DNA of 64,000 bases from the NCBI GenBank assembly GCA_965283875.1, contig CBDIQC010000001.1:810085-874084 (forward strand), in the 5' to 3' direction. This DNA comes from an uncultured Elusimicrobia bacterium (GTDB lineage Bacteria > Elusimicrobiota > Elusimicrobia > UBA1565 > UBA9628). Positions 11,224-43,743 of this stretch are shown piece after piece (positions within the stretch are counted from its first letter, which is position 1; the number at the start of each line of letters is the position of its first letter). The position numbers and the translations under genes were made by a program. Under the pieces are notes generated by a model. The model worked only from the letters and a program-made list of their open reading frames with translations. It had not been told where the DNA came from and did not search any database.

Positions 11224-12201
11224 GTGTCCCTCGCCTTAGAAGCCAAAGGCCTCACCAAGGACTACCTCTCCCCCATCAAGGAGCCCGGCCTGCTCGGCGG
11301 GCTCAAGGGCCTGTTCACCCGCGAGTACAAGAGCACGCGCGCGGTGGACGGCGTGGACCTGAAGCTCGAGCGCGGCGAGCTCGTCGGCTTCCTCGGCGCC
11401 AACGGCGCGGGCAAAACCACCACGCTCAAGATGCTCTCCGGCCTGCTCACCCCGACGGGCGGCGAGGCGACCGTGCTCGGGCACGTGCCCTGGAAACGCG
11501 AGACCGCCTACCTCAAGCGCATCTCGCTGGTCATGGGACAGCGCTCCCAGCTGTGGTGGGAGATCCCCGCCTACGAGACCTTCCGGCTCAACCAGGCGGT
11601 CTATGGCATCCCCGAGCCCGCCTTCCGCCGCCATCTCGACGAGCTCGTGGACCTGCTCGAGCTCGGCCCGCACCTCTCGGTGCCGGTCAAGAAGCTCTCG
11701 CTGGGCGAACGCATGCGCGCCGAGCTGGCCGCGGCGCTGCTGCACCAGCCCGCGCTGCTGCTGCTCGATGAGCCCACCATCGGCCTCGACGTCGTGATGC
11801 AGAAGAAGGTGCGCGAGTTCGTGAAGTCCTACAACAAGCGCCACGCGGCCACCATCCTGCTCACCAGCCACAACATGGGCGACGTCGTCGAGCTGTGCAA
11901 ACGCGTCGTGGTCGTGGACCACGGCCGCCTGCTCTACGACGGCTCGCTCGAGAAGCTGGTCTCGCGTTACGCCGACCACAAGATCCTGCGCGCGCGTTTC
12001 TCCGCCACGGTGGACGCCGCCGACCTCAAATCCATCGGCACCTTGGTCTCGCTCGAGGACGACATCGCCGTCATCGAGATCCCGCGCAAGGACGTGGCGG
12101 CCGCCGCCGCCGCGCTGCTGCGCTCCTACCCCGTCGCCGACCTCGACGTCGGCGAGGTCGCCATCGACGACGTGGTGCGCCGGCTCTTCTCGCAGGAATG
12201 A
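11224..12201 (+). CDS. ABC transporter ATP-binding protein
   Basis: Walker A GANGAGKTT, signature LSLGERMR, Walker B LLLLDEPTIGLD. GTG start. Confidence 0.9.
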   Translation: MSLALEAKGLTKDYLSPIKEPGLLGGLKGLFTREYKSTRAVDGVDLKLERGELVGFLGANGAGKTTTLKMLSGLLTPTGGEATVLGHVPWKRETAYLKRISLVMGQRSQLWWEIPAYETFRLNQAVYGIPEPAFRRHLDELVDLLELGPHLSVPVKKLSLGERMRAELAAALLHQPALLLLDEPTIGLDVVMQKKVREFVKSYNKRHAATILLTSHNMGDVVELCKRVVVVDHGRLLYDGSLEKLVSRYADHKILRARFSATVDAADLKSIGTLVSLEDDIAVIEIPRKDVAAAAAALLRSYPVADLDVGEVAIDDVVRRLFSQE

Positions 12202-26462: not shown

Positions 26463-26536
26463 TGGTTCCCAGGCGTGGATTCGAACCACGAATAACGGCT
26501 TCAAAGGCCGCTGTGTTACCATTACACCACCTGGGA
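26463..26536 (-). tRNA. tRNA-Gln (anticodon UUG), CCA encoded
   Basis: Hand-folded cloverleaf. Acceptor TCCCAGG/CCTGGGA, D arm GTGT-AATGGTA-ACAC, anticodon arm GCGGC-CTTTGAA-GCCGT, T arm CGTGG-TTCGAAT-CCACG, then ACCA. Confidence 0.9.
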
Positions 26537-32376: not shown

Positions 32377-32955
32377 TTAAGCCGTCTCGATGGCGAGCAG
32401 CTTCTTCCAGCTCGGCGGGATGTGCTGGCGCGGGTGCGGCACGAGGCTGCCCATCAGCGACCACCGCGGCTTGGCCGGCATGGTGCGCAGCGGCATGCCG
32501 GCCTCGTCGGGAAGTTTGTCGGCCTTCCTCAAATTGCACACGCGGCAGGAGGTGACGACGTTGGTCCACTCGTGCGGGCCGCCGCGCGAACGCGGCAGGA
32601 CGTGGTCCAAGTCCAGCTCGTCGGTGGCCTTGCGTTTGCCGCAGTACGAGCACTTGTGCTGGTCGCGCGCGAACACGTTGTGCCGCGTGAACGCCACCTC
32701 GCGGTGCGGGACGCGGTCGTACCTCGTCAGGCGCACGACCTCGGGCACGGCGATCCTCAAATTGGGCGAATGGATGAACCCGCCGGAGAACTCGACCCAG
32801 TTGGACGAGGCTTCCACCCAGCGCTCGAAGTCGTAGCCGATGAGCTCGTCGTCCAAGGCCTCGGCCAAACCCCTATAAACGAGCGCCACCGCGCGTTGCC
32901 AGTCGGCGACCGCGATGGCCCTAAACGAGCGATTGAGGATAAGGGTCCGAGTCAT
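32377..32955 (-). CDS. HNH endonuclease family protein (high-GC, core-genome type)
   Basis: CSYCGKR..LDLDHVLPRSRGGPHEWTNVVTSCRVCNLRK. Start at MTRTLILNRSF. Confidence 0.85.
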   Translation of the reverse strand: MTRTLILNRSFRAIAVADWQRAVALVYRGLAEALDDELIGYDFERWVEASSNWVEFSGGFIHSPNLRIAVPEVVRLTRYDRVPHREVAFTRHNVFARDQHKCSYCGKRKATDELDLDHVLPRSRGGPHEWTNVVTSCRVCNLRKADKLPDEAGMPLRTMPAKPRWSLMGSLVPHPRQHIPPSWKKLLAIETA

Positions 32956-32994
32956 CCCCTCTAGGTTAACAGGCGAAAAGCCGAAAATCAACGG

Positions 32995-33012
32995 GGCAGG
33001 GGCCCCCCTGCC
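32995..33012. terminator. Short GC hairpin GGCAGGGG-CC-CCCCTGCC with T/A-rich flanks
   Basis: Lies between the small ORF ending at 33049 and the HNH start. On the minus strand it is followed by a T-rich tract (ttgattttcggcttttc). Confidence 0.35.
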
Positions 33013-33048
33013 GGGCTTATTTAGGGAAGGGGGTAGGCCGGTCGTCCG

Positions 33049-33204
33049 CTACTCTTGGGAGCCGCCGATAACGCTGCTCTGGGTGCCCATAAAAAACGTC
33101 CGCATCAAATACCCCGCCAGCGCCAGGAACACGACCCCGGCGATGATGATGATCAGCGCCGTTTGGCCTTCGCCGGCGCCGCGCCGCGATTTAAGCGGGT
33201 TCAT
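33049..33204 (-). CDS. Small single-TM protein (51 aa)
   Basis: MNPLKSRRGAGEGQTALIIIIAGVVFLALAGYLMRTFF. Its ATG overlaps the stop of the upstream gene (TGATG), suggesting translational coupling. Confidence 0.45.
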   Translation of the reverse strand: MNPLKSRRGAGEGQTALIIIIAGVVFLALAGYLMRTFFMGTQSSVIGGSQE

Positions 33205-33563
33205 CAGGCTCCTTTGATTTCCACGAGGTATGAGGTCAGCTTGCGGATCTTCCCGCCCCGCATCTCGAACACGTCGCAGAAAGCCAGGTTCACGACCGTC
33301 CCGCCTTTCAAATGGGTCAACACGGTGCCTTCGGCCACCACGACGTCCCCCTCCTCGGTTAGGCGGGACACCTTTATATCGGGTTTGCCCTCGAAGCAGC
33401 CGTCGCCTTCGATTTCCTTGTCGAACTCGGCTTTTCCTCGCTTCACGAAAGCGCCGGGCAGCACCCATTCGATGTCCTCGGTCAGGCAGCCCAAGACGCC
33501 CGCGTGGTCGAACACGCGGTAGGCGGCCATATACGCCGTGACGGTCTTCTTGTTCTCGGACAT
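33204..33563 (-). CDS. SnoaL-like / NTF2-fold protein
   Basis: MSENKKTVTAYMAAYRVFDHAGVLGCLTEDIEWVLPG...CDVFEMRGGKIRKLTSYLVE: a typical ketosteroid-isomerase-like pattern. Confidence 0.65.
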   Translation of the reverse strand: MSENKKTVTAYMAAYRVFDHAGVLGCLTEDIEWVLPGAFVKRGKAEFDKEIEGDGCFEGKPDIKVSRLTEEGDVVVAEGTVLTHLKGGTVVNLAFCDVFEMRGGKIRKLTSYLVEIKGA

Positions 33564-33565
33564 GT

Positions 33566-34753
33566 CTATTCCTTGGGGGCGAAGTTCTTGCGGAAATACG
33601 AATGCATGAAATCGCTGTGCTCGCGGTGCTTCATCCGCACGTACGAGTCGGTGCCGCGGTAATCGTTGATATACGTCCCCATGCGGCAGTTGTCGGGCGC
33701 TTGCATACACCAGGCCTGCTGCGCTTCCTTCATCTGCCGTAGAATCAACGAGAAGTTGCCGAACGCGGCCTTGGCCTTGGCTTCCTCGTCGGCCTTATTC
33801 TGGTAGTAGGCCTTGTCCTCCTCGGACCTCTTGACGAAATTGTAGACGTGCGTCAGGCGCGCGGTATCGCGCCCGATAGCCTTGGCTTCCTGGATGGCCC
33901 CTTCGAGGTCGGCCGACGACGCGTTGAGGTCCTTCTCCAGCCAGGCGTACCAATCCTCCCCGCCCAGCTCGCGCGCGCAGTTGCGCTCCTTAATCGACGC
34001 CCAGGTGCTCGACGTTCGGACGCAGTCGCGCAGCAGGCTGCGCTGGGATTCGGCCTCCGTCTTCAGGCGTTTCTCCCACCGCTCGCGCAAAGCGGCGTTT
34101 TCGGCGTCGCTCATGGACACCGTTTTAGACGCGGCGAGGTAGTCCTCGGACGGCACCTGGTCCGTGGACAGCAGGAACTCCACCCACGCTCGCCCGCCCA
34201 GGCGTTTGAAACACAGCGCCGTGTTGGTCGTCCCCAGATTCGCGCACGGGGATTTATCCGCGACCGGGGCCGCCCCCTTCAGCGCCGCGATGGTCGCCGC
34301 CACGACGGTCGCCGACGACCGGCTCGGCGCGACTTCGGGCTTTAGGACCTCCCAGCCCGCTCCGGGGTTGCCCACGCGTACCTCGAGCAGGCGCCAGAGG
34401 CCTTCGGCGTCCTTCCAAACGACCGCGTTGTGTTTGGCGTCGTGCAGCGGGGCGTAGTCCATGTCCACGCTACCGTAGATCCAGCCGGGGTTGGCCACCT
34501 CGTTGTAATGCGGCGCCGAGTAGGTCACACGCCCGCCGCCGGCGTTCCAAGCCGTGACGAACAGCTTCCCGCGCACCTCCTGGCCGAGCGCGCTTGGCGG
34601 CAGCTTATACGCCGCCTTCTTGCTCGCGTCGTAGAACTGGTACCGCTTGCCGTCGGCCGTCGGTACCACCAGCAAACCGTTGACCTTCTTGGGCTCGGCC
34701 GCAAAAGCCCCGCCCGCCGTCAGCAGTAGCGCCGCCAGCAGGCCCTTCCTCAC
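33566..34753 (-). CDS. Hypothetical exported protein
   Basis: Signal peptide MRKGLLAALLLTAGGAFA. 395 aa with several Cys. No recognised family. Confidence 0.6.
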   Translation of the reverse strand: MRKGLLAALLLTAGGAFAAEPKKVNGLLVVPTADGKRYQFYDASKKAAYKLPPSALGQEVRGKLFVTAWNAGGGRVTYSAPHYNEVANPGWIYGSVDMDYAPLHDAKHNAVVWKDAEGLWRLLEVRVGNPGAGWEVLKPEVAPSRSSATVVAATIAALKGAAPVADKSPCANLGTTNTALCFKRLGGRAWVEFLLSTDQVPSEDYLAASKTVSMSDAENAALRERWEKRLKTEAESQRSLLRDCVRTSSTWASIKERNCARELGGEDWYAWLEKDLNASSADLEGAIQEAKAIGRDTARLTHVYNFVKRSEEDKAYYQNKADEEAKAKAAFGNFSLILRQMKEAQQAWCMQAPDNCRMGTYINDYRGTDSYVRMKHREHSDFMHSYFRKNFAPKE

Positions 34754-35567: not shown

Positions 35568-35614
35568 GAGTTTATCCCGCCAACGCAGCGGGCCTGTGGC
35601 GCAGACTTTTCTAT

Positions 35615-35917
35615 CTAGTCCCGATCGACTTCAAAGCTATTCAAAATAAGGGAATCCGCGTTGTCTCCGGCGAAAGTAAAAGTCGCTCTTTGATAAGGGA
35701 ACTTGCCGTATTCCCAAGTCGTACAGGTCCACGTATGATCCGTAGCTCCGCCACAAACCGATTGGCTCACGTTTTTCGGGTTTCCGAACATTTTCAGGAC
35801 CTCCTTAGAACTCATGCCCTGATGAATCTTCATAATGTTCTTGGTCGTGAATGAAAATGGCAAAGTGGAACAAGCCGACAGCAACCCACACGCCAAGACA
35901 ACCGATAACAGCCTCAT
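35615..35917 (-). CDS. Lipoprotein with BamE/SmpA-OmlA-like domain (island gene 6)
   Basis: MRLLSVVLACGLLSAC lipobox, then IHQGMSSKEVLKMFGNP. Strong SD (GGAGGAGG) before the ATG at 35917. Low GC. Confidence 0.7.
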   Translation of the reverse strand: MRLLSVVLACGLLSACSTLPFSFTTKNIMKIHQGMSSKEVLKMFGNPKNVSQSVCGGATDHTWTCTTWEYGKFPYQRATFTFAGDNADSLILNSFEVDRD

Positions 35918-35974
35918 ATCGCCTCCTCCTCGAAGCGCTAACATAAGCCATCTCACCGCGGTGTTTAGTGAAGT

Positions 35975-37060
35975 TTAGCGCGAAGAGCTCATCTCATCCA
36001 AACGCCATTCCGGGGCCATCGCCAAAAGCGCATCCTCCGCTCCGTGACAACCGTAAATCGGGTAATCGTGCCTGAGGCGCGCAAGGTTCAGATATGCATA
36101 AAGCTGGAAGTTGCCGAGTTTCCTCCGCACGTACACCCCATAACGCAGGCCATCCGTGACAATTAGCCGATGGCACGCGGATTTACCTTCCGCATACGAT
36201 TGGGCCTGCGATACTGCCGTTAGGCAGGAATCACCCATACGTTTCGCCTCAACGACGACACGCAAAGATCCATCACTCCGAGGCAACTGCTCGAATAGGG
36301 CGACATCTACGTGCTTCCATTCCACGGCCATCTTTTGAGGAGTCCATCCGAGGGCTCGTAGCAGCGGAACTACAAGATACGCGACCGTCTCGTGTTCCGA
36401 TGGTTTGTCTGATTCCTCGCCGGAGCGCGCATACCACTTGGCGATACGAGTCAACTCGCCAATCTCCTTTAGCAGGTTGGTGATTGACCCGCTCGCGACG
36501 CCGTGGTCAAAGAGGAATTCGGATACCCGCTCAACGGAGATTTCGCTGCTGGCATCAACCGAAGGCAGCTTAGGCAAGGCTTCACGCGCGGCCGTCTTCG
36601 GTACTTGCAGCTCGGAAAGCCACTTCATGACAGGCCCGTCATTGAGCCGCTGCGTAGTGTCTCCGAGCTTCATTGCGTATGTGCCGAACGTCTTCGGCGC
36701 TGGACGTCCGTCCCAAAACCAGCGGACGCGTCGGATATGCTGCAAGTCCCAGCCGTCAATATCTCCAAATTGATCGGCCCACTCGTAGTCGCCCACAACC
36801 TCACCGACACCGAGCACTTTCGCGGTGCCCAGCCTGAGCACCACAATGTCCCCAGGCTTCATTTCGACGGCAAACCGCTCTAGACCGGTCATTTTTCTTT
36901 GCGTCCAGTCGTCATCCAGCAAGGGCTTCTTGCAGGCAGGCCATGGACCTGCGTATCCTGGGCCATTAAGAATGACCCCCCACTTGAGACAAATATCAGC
37001 GTAATCGCGGTCGGTATCACCGGCCGCCTGCTGCCAAATCGTCTTGCCAGATATATTCAT
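35975..37060 (-). CDS. Two-domain nuclease-fold protein: unassigned N-terminal ~200 aa + C-terminal HsdR-N/Mrr-like PD-(D/E)xK domain (island gene 5)
   Basis: C-terminus SEHETVAYLVVPLLRALGW..WKHVDVALF..LRVVVEAKRMG..AVSQAQSYA = E224, D252, E271-x-K273, QxxxY. The N-terminus (GDIVVLRLGTAKVLGVGEVVGDYEW) is unassigned. Confidence 0.7.
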   Translation of the reverse strand: MNISGKTIWQQAAGDTDRDYADICLKWGVILNGPGYAGPWPACKKPLLDDDWTQRKMTGLERFAVEMKPGDIVVLRLGTAKVLGVGEVVGDYEWADQFGDIDGWDLQHIRRVRWFWDGRPAPKTFGTYAMKLGDTTQRLNDGPVMKWLSELQVPKTAAREALPKLPSVDASSEISVERVSEFLFDHGVASGSITNLLKEIGELTRIAKWYARSGEESDKPSEHETVAYLVVPLLRALGWTPQKMAVEWKHVDVALFEQLPRSDGSLRVVVEAKRMGDSCLTAVSQAQSYAEGKSACHRLIVTDGLRYGVYVRRKLGNFQLYAYLNLARLRHDYPIYGCHGAEDALLAMAPEWRLDEMSSSR

Positions 37061-37116
37061 GCTTTAGTTAGTCCGATTACGCGGTAGCGGCGCATGCTGC
37101 GCGGCGCCAAGCTGTC

Positions 37117-37617
37117 TTATTCGACCTTTCCTCTGAGATGGGTCAAGATCTGAAGAAAACGAAAAGCCGGGTTGCCTGTATCACGCGTAGTCTTCTTTGC
37201 CTCAGCCTTGAGTTGCCGTATTCGTGAAGTGTATTCCGTGTTGATTATGAGCTCAAGTCCCGCAATCTTCCGGAGAGCGTTGGTTATCGCGCCTTCGCGA
37301 ACGATGGGCGACCACAACATGAAATGAATGTCATCGAAATCCTTGAGATGCAGTCGGGCATATAGCTTTTGCCGTTCATGCTTCTCGCGCACTTTCGAGA
37401 TGGTTGTCGCGTAGCTCCCGTACTGAAGCCCATCTAGATGCGTCGTGACTTCGCACAGATACGCAGCCTTATCTCGGTGTCGCAGCCCCACCACGTCTAA
37501 CTCCGCAAGCCCGTCCAATCCGCTGACGCGGGGGCGAATGTTATAGCCGACAAAGTCACAATCGAGATGCTGGCTCAAATAGGCTCCCACCAGATACTCG
37601 CCAAGTTCAGTTTTCAT
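37117..37617 (-). CDS. Small PD-(D/E)xK-like (YraN/Hjc-like) nuclease-fold protein (island gene 4)
   Basis: LAELDVVGLRHRDKAAYLCEVTTH = D41 ... E56-V-T58, so the canonical Lys is not in place. 166 aa. Assignment is by motif only. Confidence 0.5.
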   Translation of the reverse strand: MKTELGEYLVGAYLSQHLDCDFVGYNIRPRVSGLDGLAELDVVGLRHRDKAAYLCEVTTHLDGLQYGSYATTISKVREKHERQKLYARLHLKDFDDIHFMLWSPIVREGAITNALRKIAGLELIINTEYTSRIRQLKAEAKKTTRDTGNPAFRFLQILTHLRGKVE

Positions 37618-37651
37618 CTATTGTTCTCAATGCGCGACTACCACCGAGGCT

Positions 37652-37700
37652 CAGCCGCCGCGACTTTCAGCAGACCACCCGAACGAGGTTGCGGCGGCTG
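37652..37700 (-). repeat. GC-rich hairpin repeat, copy 1 (CAGCCGCCGC - 29 nt - GCGGCGGCTG), directly after the stop of island gene 3
   Basis: Perfect 10-bp stem. Shares the 15-mer GGCTCAGCCGCCGCG (37648-37662) with copy 2. No U-tract. Confidence 0.7.
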
Positions 37701-37706
37701 AAGCTG

Positions 37707-39098
37707 TTAGTCGGACGATTCATCATCGCCAAGCATCCGATCTAGAAATTTCCGAAACATTACTTGGGACACCACGCCGTCTGCAGCACAGCGATGCATA
37801 TCCCCATGGATTAGATGGTTTTCAACACCTGCCTGGCTGGCGTGCGCATAGTCTAGGGATGTGACATCTAAGAACAAATCGCGAATAAATCCGGTCGGCC
37901 GTACATCGAAATTGTGGCAACAGACATCTTCAATTATTTGACTTTGATATTCATCCCAGTTCATGAAGCCGCTATCTGTATCAAGGGAGCCCTTTTCAGT
38001 ACTTAGTGTCACTGAGTCAATCACGCTCTTCCCGATTCGAAAGAGTTGCGAGTCCCAAACACTCCGCAGATCATCGAGATAATCCATGGCCCCAAACTGC
38101 CCCCGGTCGCTCTTTTCGAGCCCTGGGATTACTTGCAGTAGCCCGACTCCTTCGGGAGAATGATTCTTCCCCTCGCTCTGACTCGCAGCATTGATGGAAC
38201 TCCCAAGCGAAAACGGATTAACCCCGACCATTACCAGGGAATTCGAATACGGGAGCGCTTCGCGCAATTCGGACCACGCTTGGGAGCTGTAAACAAAACC
38301 ATGAATCCCCGCCGCCTCCATTTTTTGTGCGGCTAGCGCGGAAGCAGTATTTAGGCGTTTGATCTGATCTGGTGAGGGCTGTTTCTGAAGGTCAGGATTC
38401 CATGACTCTGCGCAGTATTTCCAAACAACCTTACACACGCTCAGGCTGCTTTTACGGAACGCTGATGAAGTAAGCAAGCTAACGTCTTTTCGTGCCGGAG
38501 CCCATGGAACGAGTTTGAGTGACTTTAGATCATTGGGGTCGCTCAGCTTTGGAATCAGCGCAATAACATTTCGATGGTCCAGAGTGAGACTTTGAACAAA
38601 TGCCTCGCGCGTTATTCTCGTTTCCATTGGAGCTATGAGAATGTAGACGACATCCTCGCGACTCATTCCCGGGAAAAGCAGGGACAAGTGATTTGCATAT
38701 GCCAGCAACTCCGTGAAGGACTGTCTTTCAGTTTGTGCGCTCTTCTTCAACTCAACAATTGCGACCCCTGTGTCACCAGGAAATGAACCCAAGAAGTCAG
38801 CGCGAATTGTCGAGGTTGAAGCACGCTCGAGTGGGACCTCACACCCAAAGAGTTCCAGCGATAACAACTTCTGATGAAGACTTTCGAGGCGATCAATCAA
38901 CTTGTTCCATAGAAGGTCTTCTGGCCGAACACTATCCACAGAACACTGGCTTCGAACCAGGATCTCCGAAGGCGCTAACAAATTGGAGAATTCTTCTCGC
39001 TTACTCCAGATATACTCCTGTATCTGTTTTTCAGAGAATGGCATGTCGCATTTAGATTCGTCTAGCGCCACGCTCTGCGGCGCGCGCTGTAAAGACAT
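37707..39098 (-). CDS. N-terminal NucS/DUF91-like PD-(D/E)xK nuclease domain + ~300-aa unassigned C-terminal domain (island gene 3)
   Basis: GCEVPLERASTSTIRADFLGSFPGDTGVAIVELKKS = E87, D101, E116-L-K118. The rest has no motif I recognise. Alternative start at M19. Confidence 0.65.
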   Translation of the reverse strand: MSLQRAPQSVALDESKCDMPFSEKQIQEYIWSKREEFSNLLAPSEILVRSQCSVDSVRPEDLLWNKLIDRLESLHQKLLSLELFGCEVPLERASTSTIRADFLGSFPGDTGVAIVELKKSAQTERQSFTELLAYANHLSLLFPGMSREDVVYILIAPMETRITREAFVQSLTLDHRNVIALIPKLSDPNDLKSLKLVPWAPARKDVSLLTSSAFRKSSLSVCKVVWKYCAESWNPDLQKQPSPDQIKRLNTASALAAQKMEAAGIHGFVYSSQAWSELREALPYSNSLVMVGVNPFSLGSSINAASQSEGKNHSPEGVGLLQVIPGLEKSDRGQFGAMDYLDDLRSVWDSQLFRIGKSVIDSVTLSTEKGSLDTDSGFMNWDEYQSQIIEDVCCHNFDVRPTGFIRDLFLDVTSLDYAHASQAGVENHLIHGDMHRCAADGVVSQVMFRKFLDRMLGDDESSD

Positions 39099-39132
39099 TC
39101 CTCAATGGGCGCGCGTCGGCAGAAGCGCATGG

Positions 39133-40041
39133 CTAGCAATCTCCTCCGTAGAACGCTTCCATCAAAGGATTGGAGGGCATCCCGATTACGAAAGGCGTTA
39201 CGCCCAGAATATCTGCGCCAGCATCGTGACTATTTATAAAGCCAAGTCCGGCGAACCGATTTCTTCCACTACTAGGACGAAAATGGCACAGCGCGGTGCT
39301 GGTCGTAATCCAGCGGTGATCGATATTCATAACTACTTTGCAGTCGCCCAGCTTGCAACAAATATGCGGATCTTTTTTTAAATTGCCAGAGAAGATGGCT
39401 TCGGAATAGGGATTCGATTCGGGGATGTTTATATTTTTCGTTCGGAACTGTTCGTTGAAACTTACGACCATGCCGCAGGGGTCCTGAGAGCGAACCGCTA
39501 ATTCAAGAGGAACGGCCCTCATTTGAGTTTTTTGCAAGACCCTATTAAAGTCTGCCATCAATCCACTGAGCTCTCGACCCATATTGCGCAATGACATAAG
39601 GGGTCCATATGCTGATGTGTCTAAGATGATTCCTTGTTGCGCTGTAAGCAAAGAGAGTCGGGGAATATTGATGTAGTAGAGCTGGAAGAGTTTGGTGTCC
39701 CACGCAGGCTGGTTTGAGAGGTTTGCTGTAACCCACTTGGCATGTTCCGATTTAGTTTTCTGAAGCTTCTCTACTGGGTAACTCACCGGATCGTCATCAA
39801 TTATCTTGTGATGTTTCAAACAGAGCAGCATGAGGTTTGGTTCCGCGTTTCGCTCTTCTAGAGATAGTGAGGATTGCCCGCGTGGGCCATCTCTTTCTTC
39901 CGCGACGATATGGGCAACCTCTCCGATGAGGTGTGTGAAGGCAGGAATGCATCCCTTTTCGTATAGGACATCGCGGCAAATGGCACAGCGCCCACCCCCT
40001 TGCACCCAAATCACTCTTTTAACCTTCTCTGTCGGTGGCAT
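39133..40041 (-). CDS. HNH endonuclease (CCCH zinc-finger type) + ~200-aa unassigned C-terminal domain (island gene 2)
   Basis: GGGRCAICRD..GEVAHIVAEE..NAEPNLMLLCLKHHKIID = C19xxC22, H44, N69, C74xxH77-H78. Confidence 0.75.
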   Translation of the reverse strand: MPPTEKVKRVIWVQGGGRCAICRDVLYEKGCIPAFTHLIGEVAHIVAEERDGPRGQSSLSLEERNAEPNLMLLCLKHHKIIDDDPVSYPVEKLQKTKSEHAKWVTANLSNQPAWDTKLFQLYYINIPRLSLLTAQQGIILDTSAYGPLMSLRNMGRELSGLMADFNRVLQKTQMRAVPLELAVRSQDPCGMVVSFNEQFRTKNINIPESNPYSEAIFSGNLKKDPHICCKLGDCKVVMNIDHRWITTSTALCHFRPSSGRNRFAGLGFINSHDAGADILGVTPFVIGMPSNPLMEAFYGGDC

Positions 40042-40072
40042 GATTTGTTTTGAGATTTCTAACGCTGCGGCT

Positions 40073-40122
40073 CAGCCGCCGCGCCTATTGGGATTCTACC
40101 CGCACGCGGGCGCGGGCGGCTG
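40073..40122 (-). repeat. GC-rich hairpin repeat, copy 2 (CAGCCGCC - 34 nt with nested CCCGC/GCGGG stem - GGCGGCTG), after the stop of island gene 1
   Basis: Shares GGCTCAGCCGCCGCG (40069-40083) with copy 1. Same position relative to a gene end. Confidence 0.65.
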
Positions 40123-40150
40123 TAGCCAATGGTTAGGTGGAAATTGTCGT

Positions 40151-40879
40151 TCAAGGTATCTTCCCTTCCGTAAACTGCCCCATTAGTTCCGTCCAGTGCT
40201 TTGATTTGAATCTGTCCACTGGAAACTTCGTTAGGCGATTCGGATGATTCCAAACCCACACTTCCTTGAGGCTTCCGATATCGTAAAACGCACCGTCTTC
40301 ACTATCAGCCTGTATGCGCTGGCCAGTGACAATTGCTGCTTTCTGGCCATCCTCGGAAATTCCGATTGGCATGGCAACAAGTGCTGGAATCGACTGGACG
40401 ATTGGGAATTCAAAAACAATCTCGCCCTCTATCGATACGACTGCGCAGAATTGATCAAGCCCCTTCTTAGACTTTGAAGTGCCCTCATAATTAGGGTCGC
40501 GAAGCGACTTGTCCCGGACATGCGTGGAGCATGTGATGAATGGCGCTGAGCGAGGGAATTTAAGCCCCATAGGCAATGTTAAGTGACTATGTAGCAGATG
40601 GATTGTCTTGAATGGCTTCAAGACCTTGAGTGGAACTATCGCGGTTCCACTGCAGACCCGTGCCTTAGCGCCTTTATTCGGAGATGGGCAAAGTTCCATG
40701 TCACCAGGAAGGCGGATAAAATCGAATCGGTGCGGATACTCCGCGACGATGTTTTTCTTGGTGCCGAATAGAACGCTTAGATCGTCCTCGCCACGTTTTC
40801 CGGCTAAAGCCTGTATGGCGACGAGCACTCCGATGGCCATCAGAATAATTCGCATATGCTTTGGCTGCTCGATTTCCAC
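40151..40879 (-). CDS. Hypothetical exported protein (island gene 1)
   Basis: Signal-peptide-like MRIILMAIGVLVAIQALA (start at 40879 GTG or 40855 ATG). Low GC. No recognised family. Confidence 0.6.
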   Translation of the reverse strand: MEIEQPKHMRIILMAIGVLVAIQALAGKRGEDDLSVLFGTKKNIVAEYPHRFDFIRLPGDMELCPSPNKGAKARVCSGTAIVPLKVLKPFKTIHLLHSHLTLPMGLKFPRSAPFITCSTHVRDKSLRDPNYEGTSKSKKGLDQFCAVVSIEGEIVFEFPIVQSIPALVAMPIGISEDGQKAAIVTGQRIQADSEDGAFYDIGSLKEVWVWNHPNRLTKFPVDRFKSKHWTELMGQFTEGKIP

Positions 40880-40887
40880 CTAACTTG

Positions 40888-41020
40888 TAATTAGGCCGGG
40901 CGGTATAATTAGGCTAGTGAAGTTACAACTACCGCGGATTATAGAGTGAAAACCGGTCTTTCGCCATGGGCGTTGGCGAAATATTGGAATTGAAAACACT
41001 GCGGCTATGTCAGCCTAATT
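40888..41020. repeat. AT-rich island junction with TAATTAGGC x2 (direct) and a 9-bp inverted partner AGCCTAATT
   Basis: TAATTAGGC at 40888-40896 and 40906-40914. AGCCTAATT at 41012-41020 is the exact complement of AATTAGGCT at 40907-40915. Inner hairpin TCGCCA-n7-TGGCGA. Confidence 0.6.
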
Positions 41021-41042
41021 CCGCGGCAGGAGCGGAGAGTCG

Positions 41043-41375
41043 CTAGAGGCGGATGGCGACGGCGACCGCGTGTTCGCGGCCGTGGGAGAGCGACAGCTTG
41101 AGGTTTTTGGCGGGTTTGCCCTTGATGGTGACGAGAGGGCGGCCTTTTTTGTCGCGGGACACCGAGATGGCGGTGAGCGGGACTTCCGCGCGGCCAAGCG
41201 CCTTATAGATGGCTTCTTTGGCGGCGAAACGCACGGCGAAGTGCGGCCACGGGTCTTTTTTGGAGCGGCAGTAGGCGATTTCGGCTTTCGAGAAGACGCG
41301 GGGCAGGAACTTCTTGTTGCGGCTCGCCAAAGATTTGATGCGAGGAATCTCGACGAGATCGACGCCGAGTTCCAT
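41043..41375 (-). CDS. acpS: Holo-[acyl-carrier-protein] synthase
   Basis: MELGVDLVEIPRI..FSKAEIAYC......FAAKEAIYKAL...LSLSHGREHAVAVAI. Confidence 0.9.
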   Translation of the reverse strand: MELGVDLVEIPRIKSLASRNKKFLPRVFSKAEIAYCRSKKDPWPHFAVRFAAKEAIYKALGRAEVPLTAISVSRDKKGRPLVTIKGKPAKNLKLSLSHGREHAVAVAIRL

Positions 41376-41878
41376 CAGGGGTGGGCGAGGAAGGACAGGT
41401 GCACGCCGAGCGTGGCCGACTTCTCGATGCGCGCCAAGGTGGGCTTACACACGCCCATACGACCGGTAGGGACGGCTTCGATGTTGCCGCCGTCCATCTT
41501 CACGATCCAGCTCAGGTTGCCGTTGACCACGGGGTCGGCCGCGCCCATTTGTTTGACCAGGCACCACAACACGGGTTTGCCGACGTATTTGACGGGGTCG
41601 GACACGACCGTGTCGTAGTCCAGCGCGAGCGTTTTGGCCTCGGCGAGGACGGCGGGGTCGTAGGAGTAGGACGGGCGCTCGGAAGACAACGCGTAGCCGA
41701 CCTCCCGCCAGTTCACGCTGTAGGCCCAACCCGCGGCGAACAACACGGCCGCGGCGCACAACAGGCCGGCCTTGCCGGCGAGCGCGTTGCGCACGACGAC
41801 GTTGGCCCGTTTGAGCGCGGTTTGCCCGAGGGTTTTCGGACCGGGGAAGGCGTCTTCGGGAGGCAGCTCGCTCGTCAT
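41375..41878 (-). CDS. Hypothetical membrane-anchored protein
   Basis: One TM helix (GLLCAAAVLFAAGWAY). Overlaps glmS (4 nt) and acpS (1 nt). Confidence 0.6.
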   Translation of the reverse strand: MTSELPPEDAFPGPKTLGQTALKRANVVVRNALAGKAGLLCAAAVLFAAGWAYSVNWREVGYALSSERPSYSYDPAVLAEAKTLALDYDTVVSDPVKYVGKPVLWCLVKQMGAADPVVNGNLSWIVKMDGGNIEAVPTGRMGVCKPTLARIEKSATLGVHLSFLAHP

Positions 41879-43743
41879 TCGACGGTGACGGACTTGGCCA
41901 GGTTGCGGGGCTGATCGACGTCGCAGCCGCGCAGGTCGGCGATGTGGTAGGCCAGCAGCTGGAGAGGGATGATGTTGACGATGGGCGTCATCAGCTCGGG
42001 CATGGGCGGCAGGCGCAGCACCGCTTCGCAGTCGCGGAACTCGCCCACGCCTTCGGTGGCGATGGCGATGATGCGCGCGCCGCGGGCTTTGACCTCTTCC
42101 ATGGAGGAGAGGGTCTTTTCGAGGACCTTGGACTGCGTCGCGATGACCACGACGGGCATCTCGCTGTCGATGAGCGCGATGGGGCCGTGTTTGAGCTCGC
42201 CGGCGGCGTAACCTTCGGCGTGGATGTAGGAGATTTCTTTGAGCTTGAGCGCGGCTTCGAGCGCGATGGGGAAGTTCGCGTGGCGGCCGATGAAGAGGAA
42301 GTGTTCGGCCTTCGAGAACTTCCGCGCGACCGCCAGGATGTCCTTGTCGAGCTTGAGCGCCGTGCGGATCCAGCCCGGGACCTTCACCAGGTCATCGACG
42401 AAGGCGCGGCCCTGGGTCTCGTTCATCGAGCCGCGGCCCATGGCCGCGTGCAAAACGATGACCGCGAGCGCGGTGAGCTGGCCGATGAAGGCCTTGGTCG
42501 ATGCCACGCCCAATTCCATGCCGCAATGAGTGTAGAGCGTCCAATCCGAGGCGCGGGTGAGCGCGGAGCCGACCGTGTTGCAGATGGAAAGGACCTTCGC
42601 GCCTTTTTCCTTGGCGAGTTTGACCGCGGCCAAGGTGTCGGCGGTTTCGCCGGACTGGGACACCGCGATGAACAGGTCGCCGGGGCCGACGGTGGTGGCG
42701 CGGTAGCGGAACTCGGAAGCGGTTTCCACGTGGACGGGGATGCCCACGAGCTCCTCGAGCCAGTATTTAGCGACGAGGCAGGCGTGGTAGGCCGTGCCGC
42801 ACGCGGTCATGTGGATGGCGCGCGTGGTTTTGAGGATGTCGGTGTTCATCCCGCATTCGCGCTCGAGCACGCCTTTGAGAGGGAAGAAGCGGCCGCGCAT
42901 GGTGTCTTCGGAGGACGCGGGCTGCTCGTGAATCTCCTTGAGCATGAAGTGCCGGTAGCCGGCCTTCTCGGCCATCGTGCGGTCCCAGGAGATGTTGGTG
43001 GGCGTCTTTTCCAGGCGTTTGCCGGCGAGGTTGAAGAAGGTGACCCCGTCTTTCTTGAGGACGGCCATCTCGCCGTCTTCCATGAAGACGGCTTTACGCG
43101 TGTGCGCGAGGAAGGCCGGCACGTCGGAGGCGAGGAAGGTTTCCCCCTCCCCGAGCCCGATGATGAGCGGCGAGGCGGTTTTGGCGGCCACGATGACGCC
43201 GGGGGCCTTGGACCAGAGCACGGCCAGCGCGTAGGCGCCGCGCACGTCCGCCAGGGCGCGTCGGACGGCTTCAAAGAGGAGCGGCTCGTTGAGATCGGGC
43301 TTCGGCGAGGTGCCGGGCGGGGCGATCAGCGCGATCTTCTCGGCCACGAGGTGGGCCAGAATCTCGGTATCGGTTTCGGACTCGAACTTCACGCCTTTGG
43401 CGGTGAGCCGGTCCTTGATCTCGAGCCAGTTCTCGATGATGCCGTTGTGGATGACGGCGACCGTGCCGGTGCCGTCGGTGTGGGGATGGGCGTTTTCTTC
43501 GGACGGTTTGCCGTGGGTGGCCCAACGCGTGTGGCCGAGGGCGACGGTGCCGGCCAAGGGGGCGTCTTTAAGGACCTTTTCGAGGTTGGTGAGTTTGCCC
43601 GGGGCGCGACGCCGTTCGATGCCGCCGTCTAAGATGGCCGCCAGGCCCGCGGAGTCATAACCGCGGTATTCGAGCTTCTTGAGCCCGTCCATGAGCAGCG
43701 GGACGGCCTGTTTGGGACCGACATAACCCACGATTCCGCACAT
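41875..43743 (-). CDS. glmS: Glutamine--fructose-6-phosphate aminotransferase
   Basis: MCGIVGYVG..LEYRGYDSAG N-terminus, two SIS domains, C-terminal DQPRNLAKSVTVE. Confidence 0.96.
   Translation of the reverse strand: MCGIVGYVGPKQAVPLLMDGLKKLEYRGYDSAGLAAILDGGIERRRAPGKLTNLEKVLKDAPLAGTVALGHTRWATHGKPSEENAHPHTDGTGTVAVIHNGIIENWLEIKDRLTAKGVKFESETDTEILAHLVAEKIALIAPPGTSPKPDLNEPLLFEAVRRALADVRGAYALAVLWSKAPGVIVAAKTASPLIIGLGEGETFLASDVPAFLAHTRKAVFMEDGEMAVLKKDGVTFFNLAGKRLEKTPTNISWDRTMAEKAGYRHFMLKEIHEQPASSEDTMRGRFFPLKGVLERECGMNTDILKTTRAIHMTACGTAYHACLVAKYWLEELVGIPVHVETASEFRYRATTVGPGDLFIAVSQSGETADTLAAVKLAKEKGAKVLSICNTVGSALTRASDWTLYTHCGMELGVASTKAFIGQLTALAVIVLHAAMGRGSMNETQGRAFVDDLVKVPGWIRTALKLDKDILAVARKFSKAEHFLFIGRHANFPIALEAALKLKEISYIHAEGYAAGELKHGPIALIDSEMPVVVIATQSKVLEKTLSSMEEVKARGARIIAIATEGVGEFRDCEAVLRLPPMPELMTPIVNIIPLQLLAYHIADLRGCDVDQPRNLAKSVTVE

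Follow-up and report, generated by a model that had tools for sequence, protein, structure and literature searches.

The closest described counterparts of the locus reported here are integron cassette arrays. Integron cassettes were shown experimentally to encode many compact phage-defense systems and form low-cost defense islands of bacteriophage-resistance integron cassettes (BRiCs), and homologues of defense cassettes as well as pseudo-attC sites occur outside integrons too (bioRxiv 10.1101/2024.07.02.601719). We analyzed a window of 64,000 nucleotides from an uncultured Elusimicrobia bacterium (contig CBDIQC010000001.1), in which a low-GC island at 35568..41042 on the minus strand carries six genes, named g1 to g6 in their order on that strand. 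A first-pass annotation of this DNA had proposed that the island is one undescribed multi-gene defense locus containing four nuclease-fold proteins. On the balance of the evidence below, we favor with reasonable, not strong, confidence a different reading; i.e., the island is a partly decayed, integrase-less array of independent, probably defensive single-gene nuclease modules, resembling a cluster of attC sites lacking an integrase (CALIN). In this view, the supposed new system of five genes gives way to a structural model that can be tested, in which cassettes were stacked via attC recombination.

The composition of the island differs from that of its surroundings. Its GC content was 0.515, compared with 0.691 for the remainder of the window; in sliding windows, GC was 0.47-0.58 at ~35.5-41.0 kb and 0.62-0.74 to either side. 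GC at third codon positions (GC3) was 0.51-0.63 in the six island genes, compared with 0.80-0.91 in acpS and three downstream host genes. The sharp drop in composition that had been noticed from the sequence is thereby borne out, and the segment is foreign, horizontally acquired DNA. The island lies directly downstream of acpS (Pfam ACPS, 2.3e-20), whose product clusters with an AcpS protein of an Elusimicrobiota metagenome-assembled genome, and acpS and a glmS-like open reading frame (ORF) stand immediately upstream of it; the opposite flank consists of uncharacterized membrane and exported proteins. The description of the island as lying between core genes thus holds on the acpS side and fails on the other. 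In the ORF listing, all six genes were on the minus strand at the positions first assigned to them. The spacers are short; the one separating g2 from g3 has 34 nt, and the others have 56-110 nt. When the minus strand was scanned for promoters, none of the sigma-70-like type was detected at 35584-41900; the sole minus-strand hit, at 35583-35554, lies at the lower edge of the island just upstream of a 163-aa host gene. The array may be expressed by transcription that continues into it from the acpS operon. Direct reading of the spacers showed that the Shine-Dalgarno sequence is weak or absent before g1-g5 and strong before g6 (GGAGGAGG), so that the weakness ascribed to these sites in the first-pass annotation applies to the first five genes and not to the last. 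Searches of the six proteins with Pfam, NCBIfam, PADLOC and PHROGs returned no methyltransferase, ATPase, cyclase, reverse transcriptase or integrase, in agreement with what had been read from the ORFs, and the Pfam and PHROGs scans found no phage, conjugation or transposase genes in the island.

The earlier interpretation missed a structural explanation, which lies in the attC recombination sites that separate genes of the island. The site after g1, attC no. 1 (82 nt, 40057..40138, minus strand), reads ACCTAAC-CATTG-GCTACAGCCGCC...GGCGGCTGAGC-CGCAGC-GTTAGAA on the coding strand. Its R'' (ACCTAAC) and R' (GTTAGAA) boxes conform to RYYYAAC and GTTRRRY, and these boxes, the GC-rich L''/L' stem with one bulged base and the unpaired spacer together correspond to the layout of attC sites in integrons. 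For comparison, we used seven genuine attC sites from class 1 integrons that were found via IntI1 in a plasmid collection (aac(6')-29a/b, blaVIM-2, arr-3, aacA4, dfrA5 and dfrA27). The predicted fold of attC no. 1 has the dot-bracket architecture of genuine sites (blaVIM-2, aacA4), with the bulge at nt 16, and its 3' end, GGCGGCTGAGCCGCAGCGTTAGAA, is nearly identical to that of the blaVIM-2 attC, GGCGGCTGAACTTCGGCGTTAGAT. When TAAC...GTTA pairs on both strands of the whole window were ranked by arm-pairing (duplex) energy, attC no. 1 ranked first in the 64 kb at -25.2 kcal/mol, the runner-up reaching -12.1 kcal/mol; by the same ranking, the genuine sites fall between -6.6 and -16.9 kcal/mol. 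In the shuffle control, one of ten shuffled windows reached -22.8 kcal/mol. The fold z-score of attC no. 1, computed for DNA, was -2.4.

A second site, attC no. 2 (77 nt, 37636..37712, minus strand), follows g3 and is degenerate. Its R'' box, GACTAAC, holds the TAA stop codon of g3, its R' box has decayed to GGTAGTC, and its stems are homologous to those of attC no. 1, as judged from a direct repeat (D2), the fold and an alignment. A stop codon within R'' is typical of cassettes and was also seen in aacA4, aac(6')-29 and the g3 homologues of two other loci (L044 and L047). The two sites are co-oriented and 2.4 kb apart; according to the IntegronFinder definition, a CALIN comprises at least two co-oriented attC sites within ~4 kb. 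The decayed R' box makes it doubtful whether attC no. 2 counts as the second such site. The fold z-scores of the two hairpins were -2.0 to -2.4. As g2 has no attC of its own, g2 and g3 would share one cassette. Two further assignments are tentative. A possible upstream cassette junction just before g1 (40878..40928, minus strand) ends in GTTAGGT, a perfect GTTRRRY, and is tentative because it comprises 51 nt only and pairs weakly. The g4-g5 spacer (37067..37116, minus strand) resembles in part the left half of attC no. 2 (GACAGCTTGGCGCCGC...GACTAAC) and may be an attC remnant, which is tentative because its fold is not better than that of shuffles (z = +0.5).

The duplex-energy ranking was calibrated on the seven genuine attC sites. 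Two other detectors, which required complementarity of at least six of seven R-box positions or exact pairing in the minimum free energy structure, were too strict; they missed the site that had been spotted by eye and returned hits at chance level. A MAFFT alignment of the seven genuine sites left the L boxes without a consistent register and was thus no basis for a covariance model.

The island thus resembles integron arrays and CALINs in its co-oriented, promoterless, functionally unrelated foreign ORFs with cargo that looks defensive, in its canonical R''/L''/L'/R' attC after g1 and in the decayed homologue of this site, with a stop codon in R'', after g3. It differs from integron arrays in that the junctions of g4, g5 and g6 are remnants at best, and in its host phylum, Elusimicrobiota. 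We know of no described integrons in this phylum. From a complete integron it differs in having no IntI, attI or Pc within the 64 kb and only one attC that looks functional.

If the six genes formed a single undescribed system with cooperating nucleases, they would be expected to travel together. The tight packing with co-orientation and short spacers (34 nt; 56-110 nt) fits such a system, as does the contiguity of g3, g4 and g5 on a second Logan contig; this contig is 100% identical, however. Two Logan contigs (L001 and L151) are in fact 100% identical to portions of the island and therefore provide no independent information. We examined 62 g3 loci from GTDB representative genomes, where tblastn found none of g1, g2, g4, g5 and g6 within 10 kb and clustering of all flanking ORFs revealed no conserved neighbor. 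A metagenome scan with a nine-sequence g2 alignment provided 32 loci with full-length g2 homologues, and other island genes and conserved neighbors were likewise absent from them. No island genes co-occurred at four g5 loci, where the lone g5 homologues adjoin recA, type II secretion genes or helix-turn-helix genes. At five g4 loci no other island gene was present, and the neighbors vary, repeating only on duplicate contigs of one element; g4 homologues are solitary in Paenibacillus and stand among small variable genes elsewhere. No pair of island genes therefore co-occurs in any of these loci, no neighbor is conserved, and the settings in which the families are found singly are integron arrays, prophages and stretches of housekeeping genes. 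Within the island itself, attC sites separate the genes. The first-pass annotation had itself named genes that never co-occur elsewhere as a ground for giving up the single-locus idea, and on this ground the idea is largely refuted. We consider a cooperating multi-gene system highly improbable and are largely convinced that the island genes are independent of each other. Instead of a co-evolved operon, they would be modules without relation to one another, each mobile on its own, which site-specific insertion of cassettes brought together in a stack.

Homologues of three of the genes circulate as cassettes elsewhere, and an integrase is present in two such arrays. In Malaciobacter canalis (NZ_CP085223.1; L016, 8769-12875), an IntI-like gene with 40% identity to IntI1 and a g3 homologue are arranged divergently, the g3 homologue forming the first cassette; identical 63-nt attC sites are located at 11341 and 12813, and the integron is probably complete. 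The chromosome of a Ca. Ozemobacteraceae metagenome-assembled genome (MAG; OZ223236.1; L041, 9300-21116) contains a textbook sedentary chromosomal integron array, with at least 12 co-oriented attC repeats of 75-130 nt (TAACAAGTGCGTCGAC...GGTCACGAC..GCGTTA) at ~1 kb spacing. Most of its cassettes hold one ORF, and the cassette with the g3 homologue holds two. AttC-like sites abut the g3 homologues of three more loci (L044, L047 and L056) and lie alongside g2 homologues at two (L094 and L102). Among the loci of g2 or HNH relatives, one (L141) carries, in this order, an IntI-like gene (52% identical), an attC and the HNH relative, and at another (L111) two attC-like sites accompany a fragment of IntI. 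A g4 homologue with 82% identity (L068, 5475-7844, and L069) stands in a small cassette-like array with a DUF4365 nuclease and a BrnT/BrnA pair; the 61-nt attC after BrnT/BrnA has boxes typical of class 1 cassettes (GTTCAAGCC...GCTTAGC), and the start of a 222-aa unknown ORF overlaps the g4 stop codon. With a cut-off of -11 kcal/mol, which six of the seven genuine sites reach, eight attC-like hairpins were found on the gene strand within 300 nt of the anchor genes, compared with 1.9 expected from the density in 1.56 Mb.

Several observations weigh against a cassette array. There is one canonical attC only, and attC no. 2 has GGT in place of GTT at the crossover point; the remaining spacers are remnants at best, with fold z-scores near 0. 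No IntI was found in the 64-kb window by tblastn of IntI1 (E <= 1e-3), a search that recovered the IntI-like genes of M. canalis and of the L141 locus. The attC detector is home-made, and a stricter cut-off of -14 kcal/mol is reached by only two of the seven genuine sites. Homologues of g5 were not seen beside attC sites, and many g3 and g4 homologues lie outside integrons (Paenibacillus, an E. coli prophage, a V. parahaemolyticus phage). An alternative reading is a generic genomic or defense island, e.g., the remnant of an integrative and conjugative element, a prophage or a transposon, in which the hairpins would be repeats or terminators and the genes would still be independent. The missing integrase and the single canonical hairpin agree with this alternative, as do the moderate fold z-scores (-2.0 to -2.4), the one shuffled window in ten that was nearly as stable, and the prophages that too carry g3 homologues. 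However, the hairpins have RYYYAAC/GTTRRRY ends, spacers and a bulged base exactly like genuine attC sites, no T-run follows them, and phage, conjugation and transposase genes are missing from the island. Moreover, homologues from three of the families demonstrably occur as cassettes at other loci, two of those arrays including the integrase. We therefore regard a generic island as unlikely and a cassette origin of the island as probable.

We then considered the cargo. The gene g2 (39133..40041, minus strand) encodes an HNH domain of the Cap5/SPARHA clade followed by a family-specific C-terminal domain, as supported by PADLOC, PDB and the family alignment. Residues 4-117 match the PADLOC SAVED-HNH model at 7.8e-31, and the HNH domain matches PDB entry 9om4 at 8.8e-19 and several Cap5 entries as well. 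In the family, whose members are homologous over the full length of ~300 aa, H44, N69 and H78 and the zinc-binding C19, C22 and C74 are invariant and the C-terminal domain is conserved, so that the HNH fold first assigned to g2 is well founded. Entry 9om4 comes from a study of the short prokaryotic Argonaute HNH-associated system (SPARHA), and the Cap5/SPARHA HNH is a collateral DNase activated by oligomerization (PMC12738770). The HNH clade, the His/Asn/His residues and the zinc cysteines are shared with Cap5 (SAVED-HNH) of the cyclic-oligonucleotide-based antiphage signaling system (CBASS) and with the HNH-APAZ protein of SPARHA (PDB 7rwm, 7rwk, 8fm1, 9om4). In contrast, the C-terminal 180 residues of g2 are neither SAVED nor APAZ, and g2 is a self-contained protein of ~300 aa without a CD-NTase or Argonaute gene nearby, here or at the 32 homologous loci. 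Specifically, we found no SAVED domain in g2 and no cyclase in the island or beside the 32 homologues, which speaks against Cap5; the match to 9om4 covers the HNH domain only, and neither APAZ nor a neighbor resembling a prokaryotic Argonaute was present here or at the 32 loci, which speaks against SPARHA. The suggestion that the island encodes effectors fits g2, given that its HNH clade consists of oligomerization-activated effectors (CBASS Cap5, SPARHA). Its own C-terminal domain presumably keeps the HNH domain inactive until a trigger leads to oligomerization and DNA degradation. In tblastn searches of g2 and g3 against plasmids, matches were restricted to the domain or distant and added little.

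The gene g3 (37707..39098, minus strand) encodes a 463-aa protein with an N-terminal PD-(D/E)xK domain and a large conserved C-terminal region, as determined by alignment and by an AlphaFold2 (AF2) model searched with Foldseek. Its family (~450 aa) occurs in Proteobacteria, Cyanobacteria, Bacteroidota, Firmicutes and other phyla and has no Pfam or PADLOC model. Across 23 diverse homologues, E87, D101, E116 and K118 are invariant, and Pfam gave weak HSDR_N hits in 17 of the 23 family members. The model (predicted local distance difference test, pLDDT, 85.5) matched XisH, EndoMS/NucS, Nt.BspD6I and PaqCI at probabilities of 0.96-0.99 but E values of ~1e-2, and viral PD-(D/E)xK proteins matched weakly. 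The protein thus shares with NucS/EndoMS, XisH and HsdR-N/Mrr a restriction-endonuclease-like N-terminal domain with D101/E116/K118 and weak HSDR_N similarity. Unlike NucS/EndoMS, it is 463 aa long, has the nuclease domain first and lacks a Pfam NucS/DUF91 hit; no such hit was obtained with the query or the 23 homologues, the structural match to EndoMS (5gke) is weak and confined to the nuclease core (E 1.8e-2), and one homologue is named DUF91. The label "NucS-like PD-(D/E)xK" in the first-pass annotation was thus correct as to the nuclease fold and incorrect as to the family profile and the two-domain layout. We propose that g3 combines a PD-(D/E)xK nuclease with a large region that may serve in regulation or recognition. 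We do not assign the island to CBASS, SPARHA, the NucS family or complete integrons because their defining features were tested and not found.

Homologues of g3 were also observed in phages. In E. coli EC28 (NZ_CP049101.1; L074, 8879-13353), a lambdoid prophage carries the gene in the accessory region that separates its replication genes from Q, and the neighbors of the g3 homologue encode a SMEK-domain protein, a class I S-adenosylmethionine-dependent methyltransferase and an ORF6N protein. In Vibrio parahaemolyticus (L075/L076, 4300-12114), it ends an integrated filamentous phage (Rep_trans, Zot) next to a gene for a PLDc_2-like protein, and the two may form a two-gene moron. The idea that Vibrio g3 homologues reside in superintegrons was rejected, as the V. 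parahaemolyticus gene is cargo of the integrated filamentous phage.

The gene g5 (35975..37060, minus strand) belongs to DUF8426 (PF28530) and encodes a YTH/EVE-like PUA-fold domain (residues ~1-150) that a helical linker joins to the PD-(D/E)xK domain at the C terminus. Fusions of EVE or YTH domains to PD-(D/E)xK nucleases are predicted type IV restriction enzymes (Bell et al. 2020, PMC7641849; Lutz et al. 2019, PMC6765204). In 27 family sequences, D252, E271 and K273 as well as seven tryptophans of the N-terminal domain are invariant; together with a weak HSDR_N hit (0.0014, below the cut-off of Pfam), these residues substantiate the PD-(D/E)xK domain proposed for g5. The N-terminal domain matched PADLOC PDC-S02 at 2.9e-7. 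In the AF2 model (pLDDT 84.7; predicted template modeling score, pTM, 0.84), the C-terminal core is alpha-beta-beta-beta-alpha-beta, and Foldseek matched the N-terminal domain to YTHDF2 (4rdo, 3e-4) and to the EVE proteins PH1033 (1wmm) and Atu2648 (1zce) at probabilities of 0.93-1.0. The guess of a modification-dependent, type IV-like activity is borne out for the architecture of g5 because the modeled N-terminal domain folds as a YTH/EVE reader fused to PD-(D/E)xK, and g5 is thus a predicted type IV modification-dependent endonuclease that fits the PUA-reader class by architecture. Like type IV enzymes with PUA-type readers (EVE/YTH/SRA), it has a reader and an invariant D...ExK in a single gene without a methyltransferase partner. 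It differs from them in that neither a sequence-level match to characterized enzymes nor a Pfam EVE/YTH match was found, that a helical linker of ~70 residues is present, and that the family is catalogued as DUF8426 (PF28530) only. The YTH/EVE pocket would read a modified base and the PD-(D/E)xK domain would cut the modified DNA. DUF8426 gave more than 1000 hits, the top 120 of which were all 64-74% identical over the full length (homologues P0121-P0240). This is unusually high conservation for a putative defense gene, and the family was seen in many metagenomes, often as lone insertions between housekeeping genes.

The gene g4 (37117..37617, minus strand) encodes a 166-aa protein of a conserved family, for which a PD-(D/E)xK-like fold is suspected and not verified. 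The family is well conserved at ~163 aa, and E7, D41 and E56 are invariant in the alignment; E-V-T stands where ExK would be expected in an E...D...ExK motif. The profile of g4 was not related to those of g3 and g5 (hhalign), 27 homologues had no consistent Pfam family, and one homologue carries the JGI name "Holliday junction resolvase-like". The pattern E7...D41...E56 and this one name are all that supports the YraN/Hjc-like fold proposed for g4, which we consider unconfirmed. Hence the first-pass count of four nuclease folds stands for g2, g3 and g5 and is unconfirmed for g4, a small protein in the array that we provisionally count among four independent nuclease-type modules. Sequence and profile searches of the PDB with g3, g4 and g5 gave nothing useful. 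In another Elusimicrobia MAG (JAQTNG010000003.1; L070, 4933-7811), a 77% identical g4 homologue lies between unknown ORFs of 326 aa and 194 aa, near a gene of pP_pnuc_2, a pPIWI-associated nuclease family.

The domain assignments support the picture, drawn earlier from the ORFs, of stand-alone nucleases with extra domains of sensor size, and the nuclease-type proteins g2-g5 would most likely act as independent single-protein defenses against foreign DNA. The context of g3 homologues was examined in the 101 largest ORFs flanking them. PADLOC (E <= 1e-10) identified seven AriA-like ATPases, four AbiLi and three PDC-S06 proteins and, further, matches to PtuA, MkoC, a type IIG restriction-modification enzyme and ZorD- or BrxH-like helicases; Pfam (E <= 1e-5) identified DDE and rve transposases/integrases. 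The surroundings of g3 homologues are thus rich in defense genes. On the side of the cargo, the doubts are that no island protein has a full-length match to an experimentally validated defense family, the PADLOC hits being shared domains only; that the C-terminal domain of g2 (~120-300) has no PADLOC or PDB match past residue 120; that the C-terminal ~300 residues of g3 have no structural match in PDB or BFVD; and that no Pfam, PDB or profile hit was obtained for a nuclease fold of g4.

The nucleases could instead be non-defensive, acting in housekeeping or repair (NucS-like mismatch repair, an Hjc/YraN-like resolvase) or as selfish toxin or addiction genes that stabilize the array. The weak similarity of g3 to EndoMS/NucS and XisH, with its homologue named DUF91, points in this direction, and so does the unusual conservation of the g5 family, in which the more than 100 relatives listed are 64-74% identical. 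These points are countered by the patchy cross-phylum distributions and foreign composition, by the lack of a NucS Pfam hit in g3 and the N-terminal position of the nuclease domain in its 463 aa, and by contexts that comprise prophage accessory regions, integron arrays and defense-gene neighborhoods. In addition, a PUA-type reader joined to a nuclease is a hallmark of type IV restriction (PMC6765204, PMC7641849). We accordingly hold a non-defensive role to be rather improbable and lean slightly toward a defense function of the island cargo.

On this reading of the island as an array of defensive single-gene modules, interest lies in the uncharacterized, widely distributed single-gene families of g2, g3 and g4 and in DUF8426 (YTH/EVE-PD-(D/E)xK), not in a new multi-gene system. 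The g2-g5 families are of a size that permits cloning one by one, and the catalytic residues to mutate are clear, which makes them well suited to defense screens; they possibly include new modification-dependent nucleases. More speculatively, the g2 family, its HNH combined with a new sensor domain of ~180 aa, and the g3 family could each represent a new anti-phage system made of one protein, and g4 might add another; they would spread as integron cassettes and prophage morons and be stacked here in a decaying Elusimicrobiota array. On the favored reading, the island adds an environmental, non-proteobacterial example to integron cassettes as libraries of compact defense genes.

The two outer genes gave little functional information. 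The ORF and the gene call on the identical Logan contig define g1 (40151..40855, minus strand) as an exported or membrane-anchored protein; its likely start is the ATG at 40855 (234 aa), and from the GTG at 40879 it would be 242 aa. Searches of Pfam, NCBIfam, PADLOC and PHROGs gave it no match. Because start calls differ, looking up g1, g2 and g6 by exact sequence returned nothing. The last low-GC gene, g6 (35615..35917, minus strand; GC3 0.58), encodes a small lipoprotein with the lipobox LSAC and likely starts at the ATG at 35917. It matches phrog_3135 at 3e-7, which is not informative on function, and its former label "BamE-like" goes back to sub-threshold hits and is unconfirmed. Outside the island, the sole tRNA gene of the window, tRNA-Gln (TTG) at 26463-26536, lies 9 kb away and not at the island border. 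A second, milder GC dip (0.59-0.62) was observed at 32750-33750, ~2 kb past the island, where it overlaps small ORFs.

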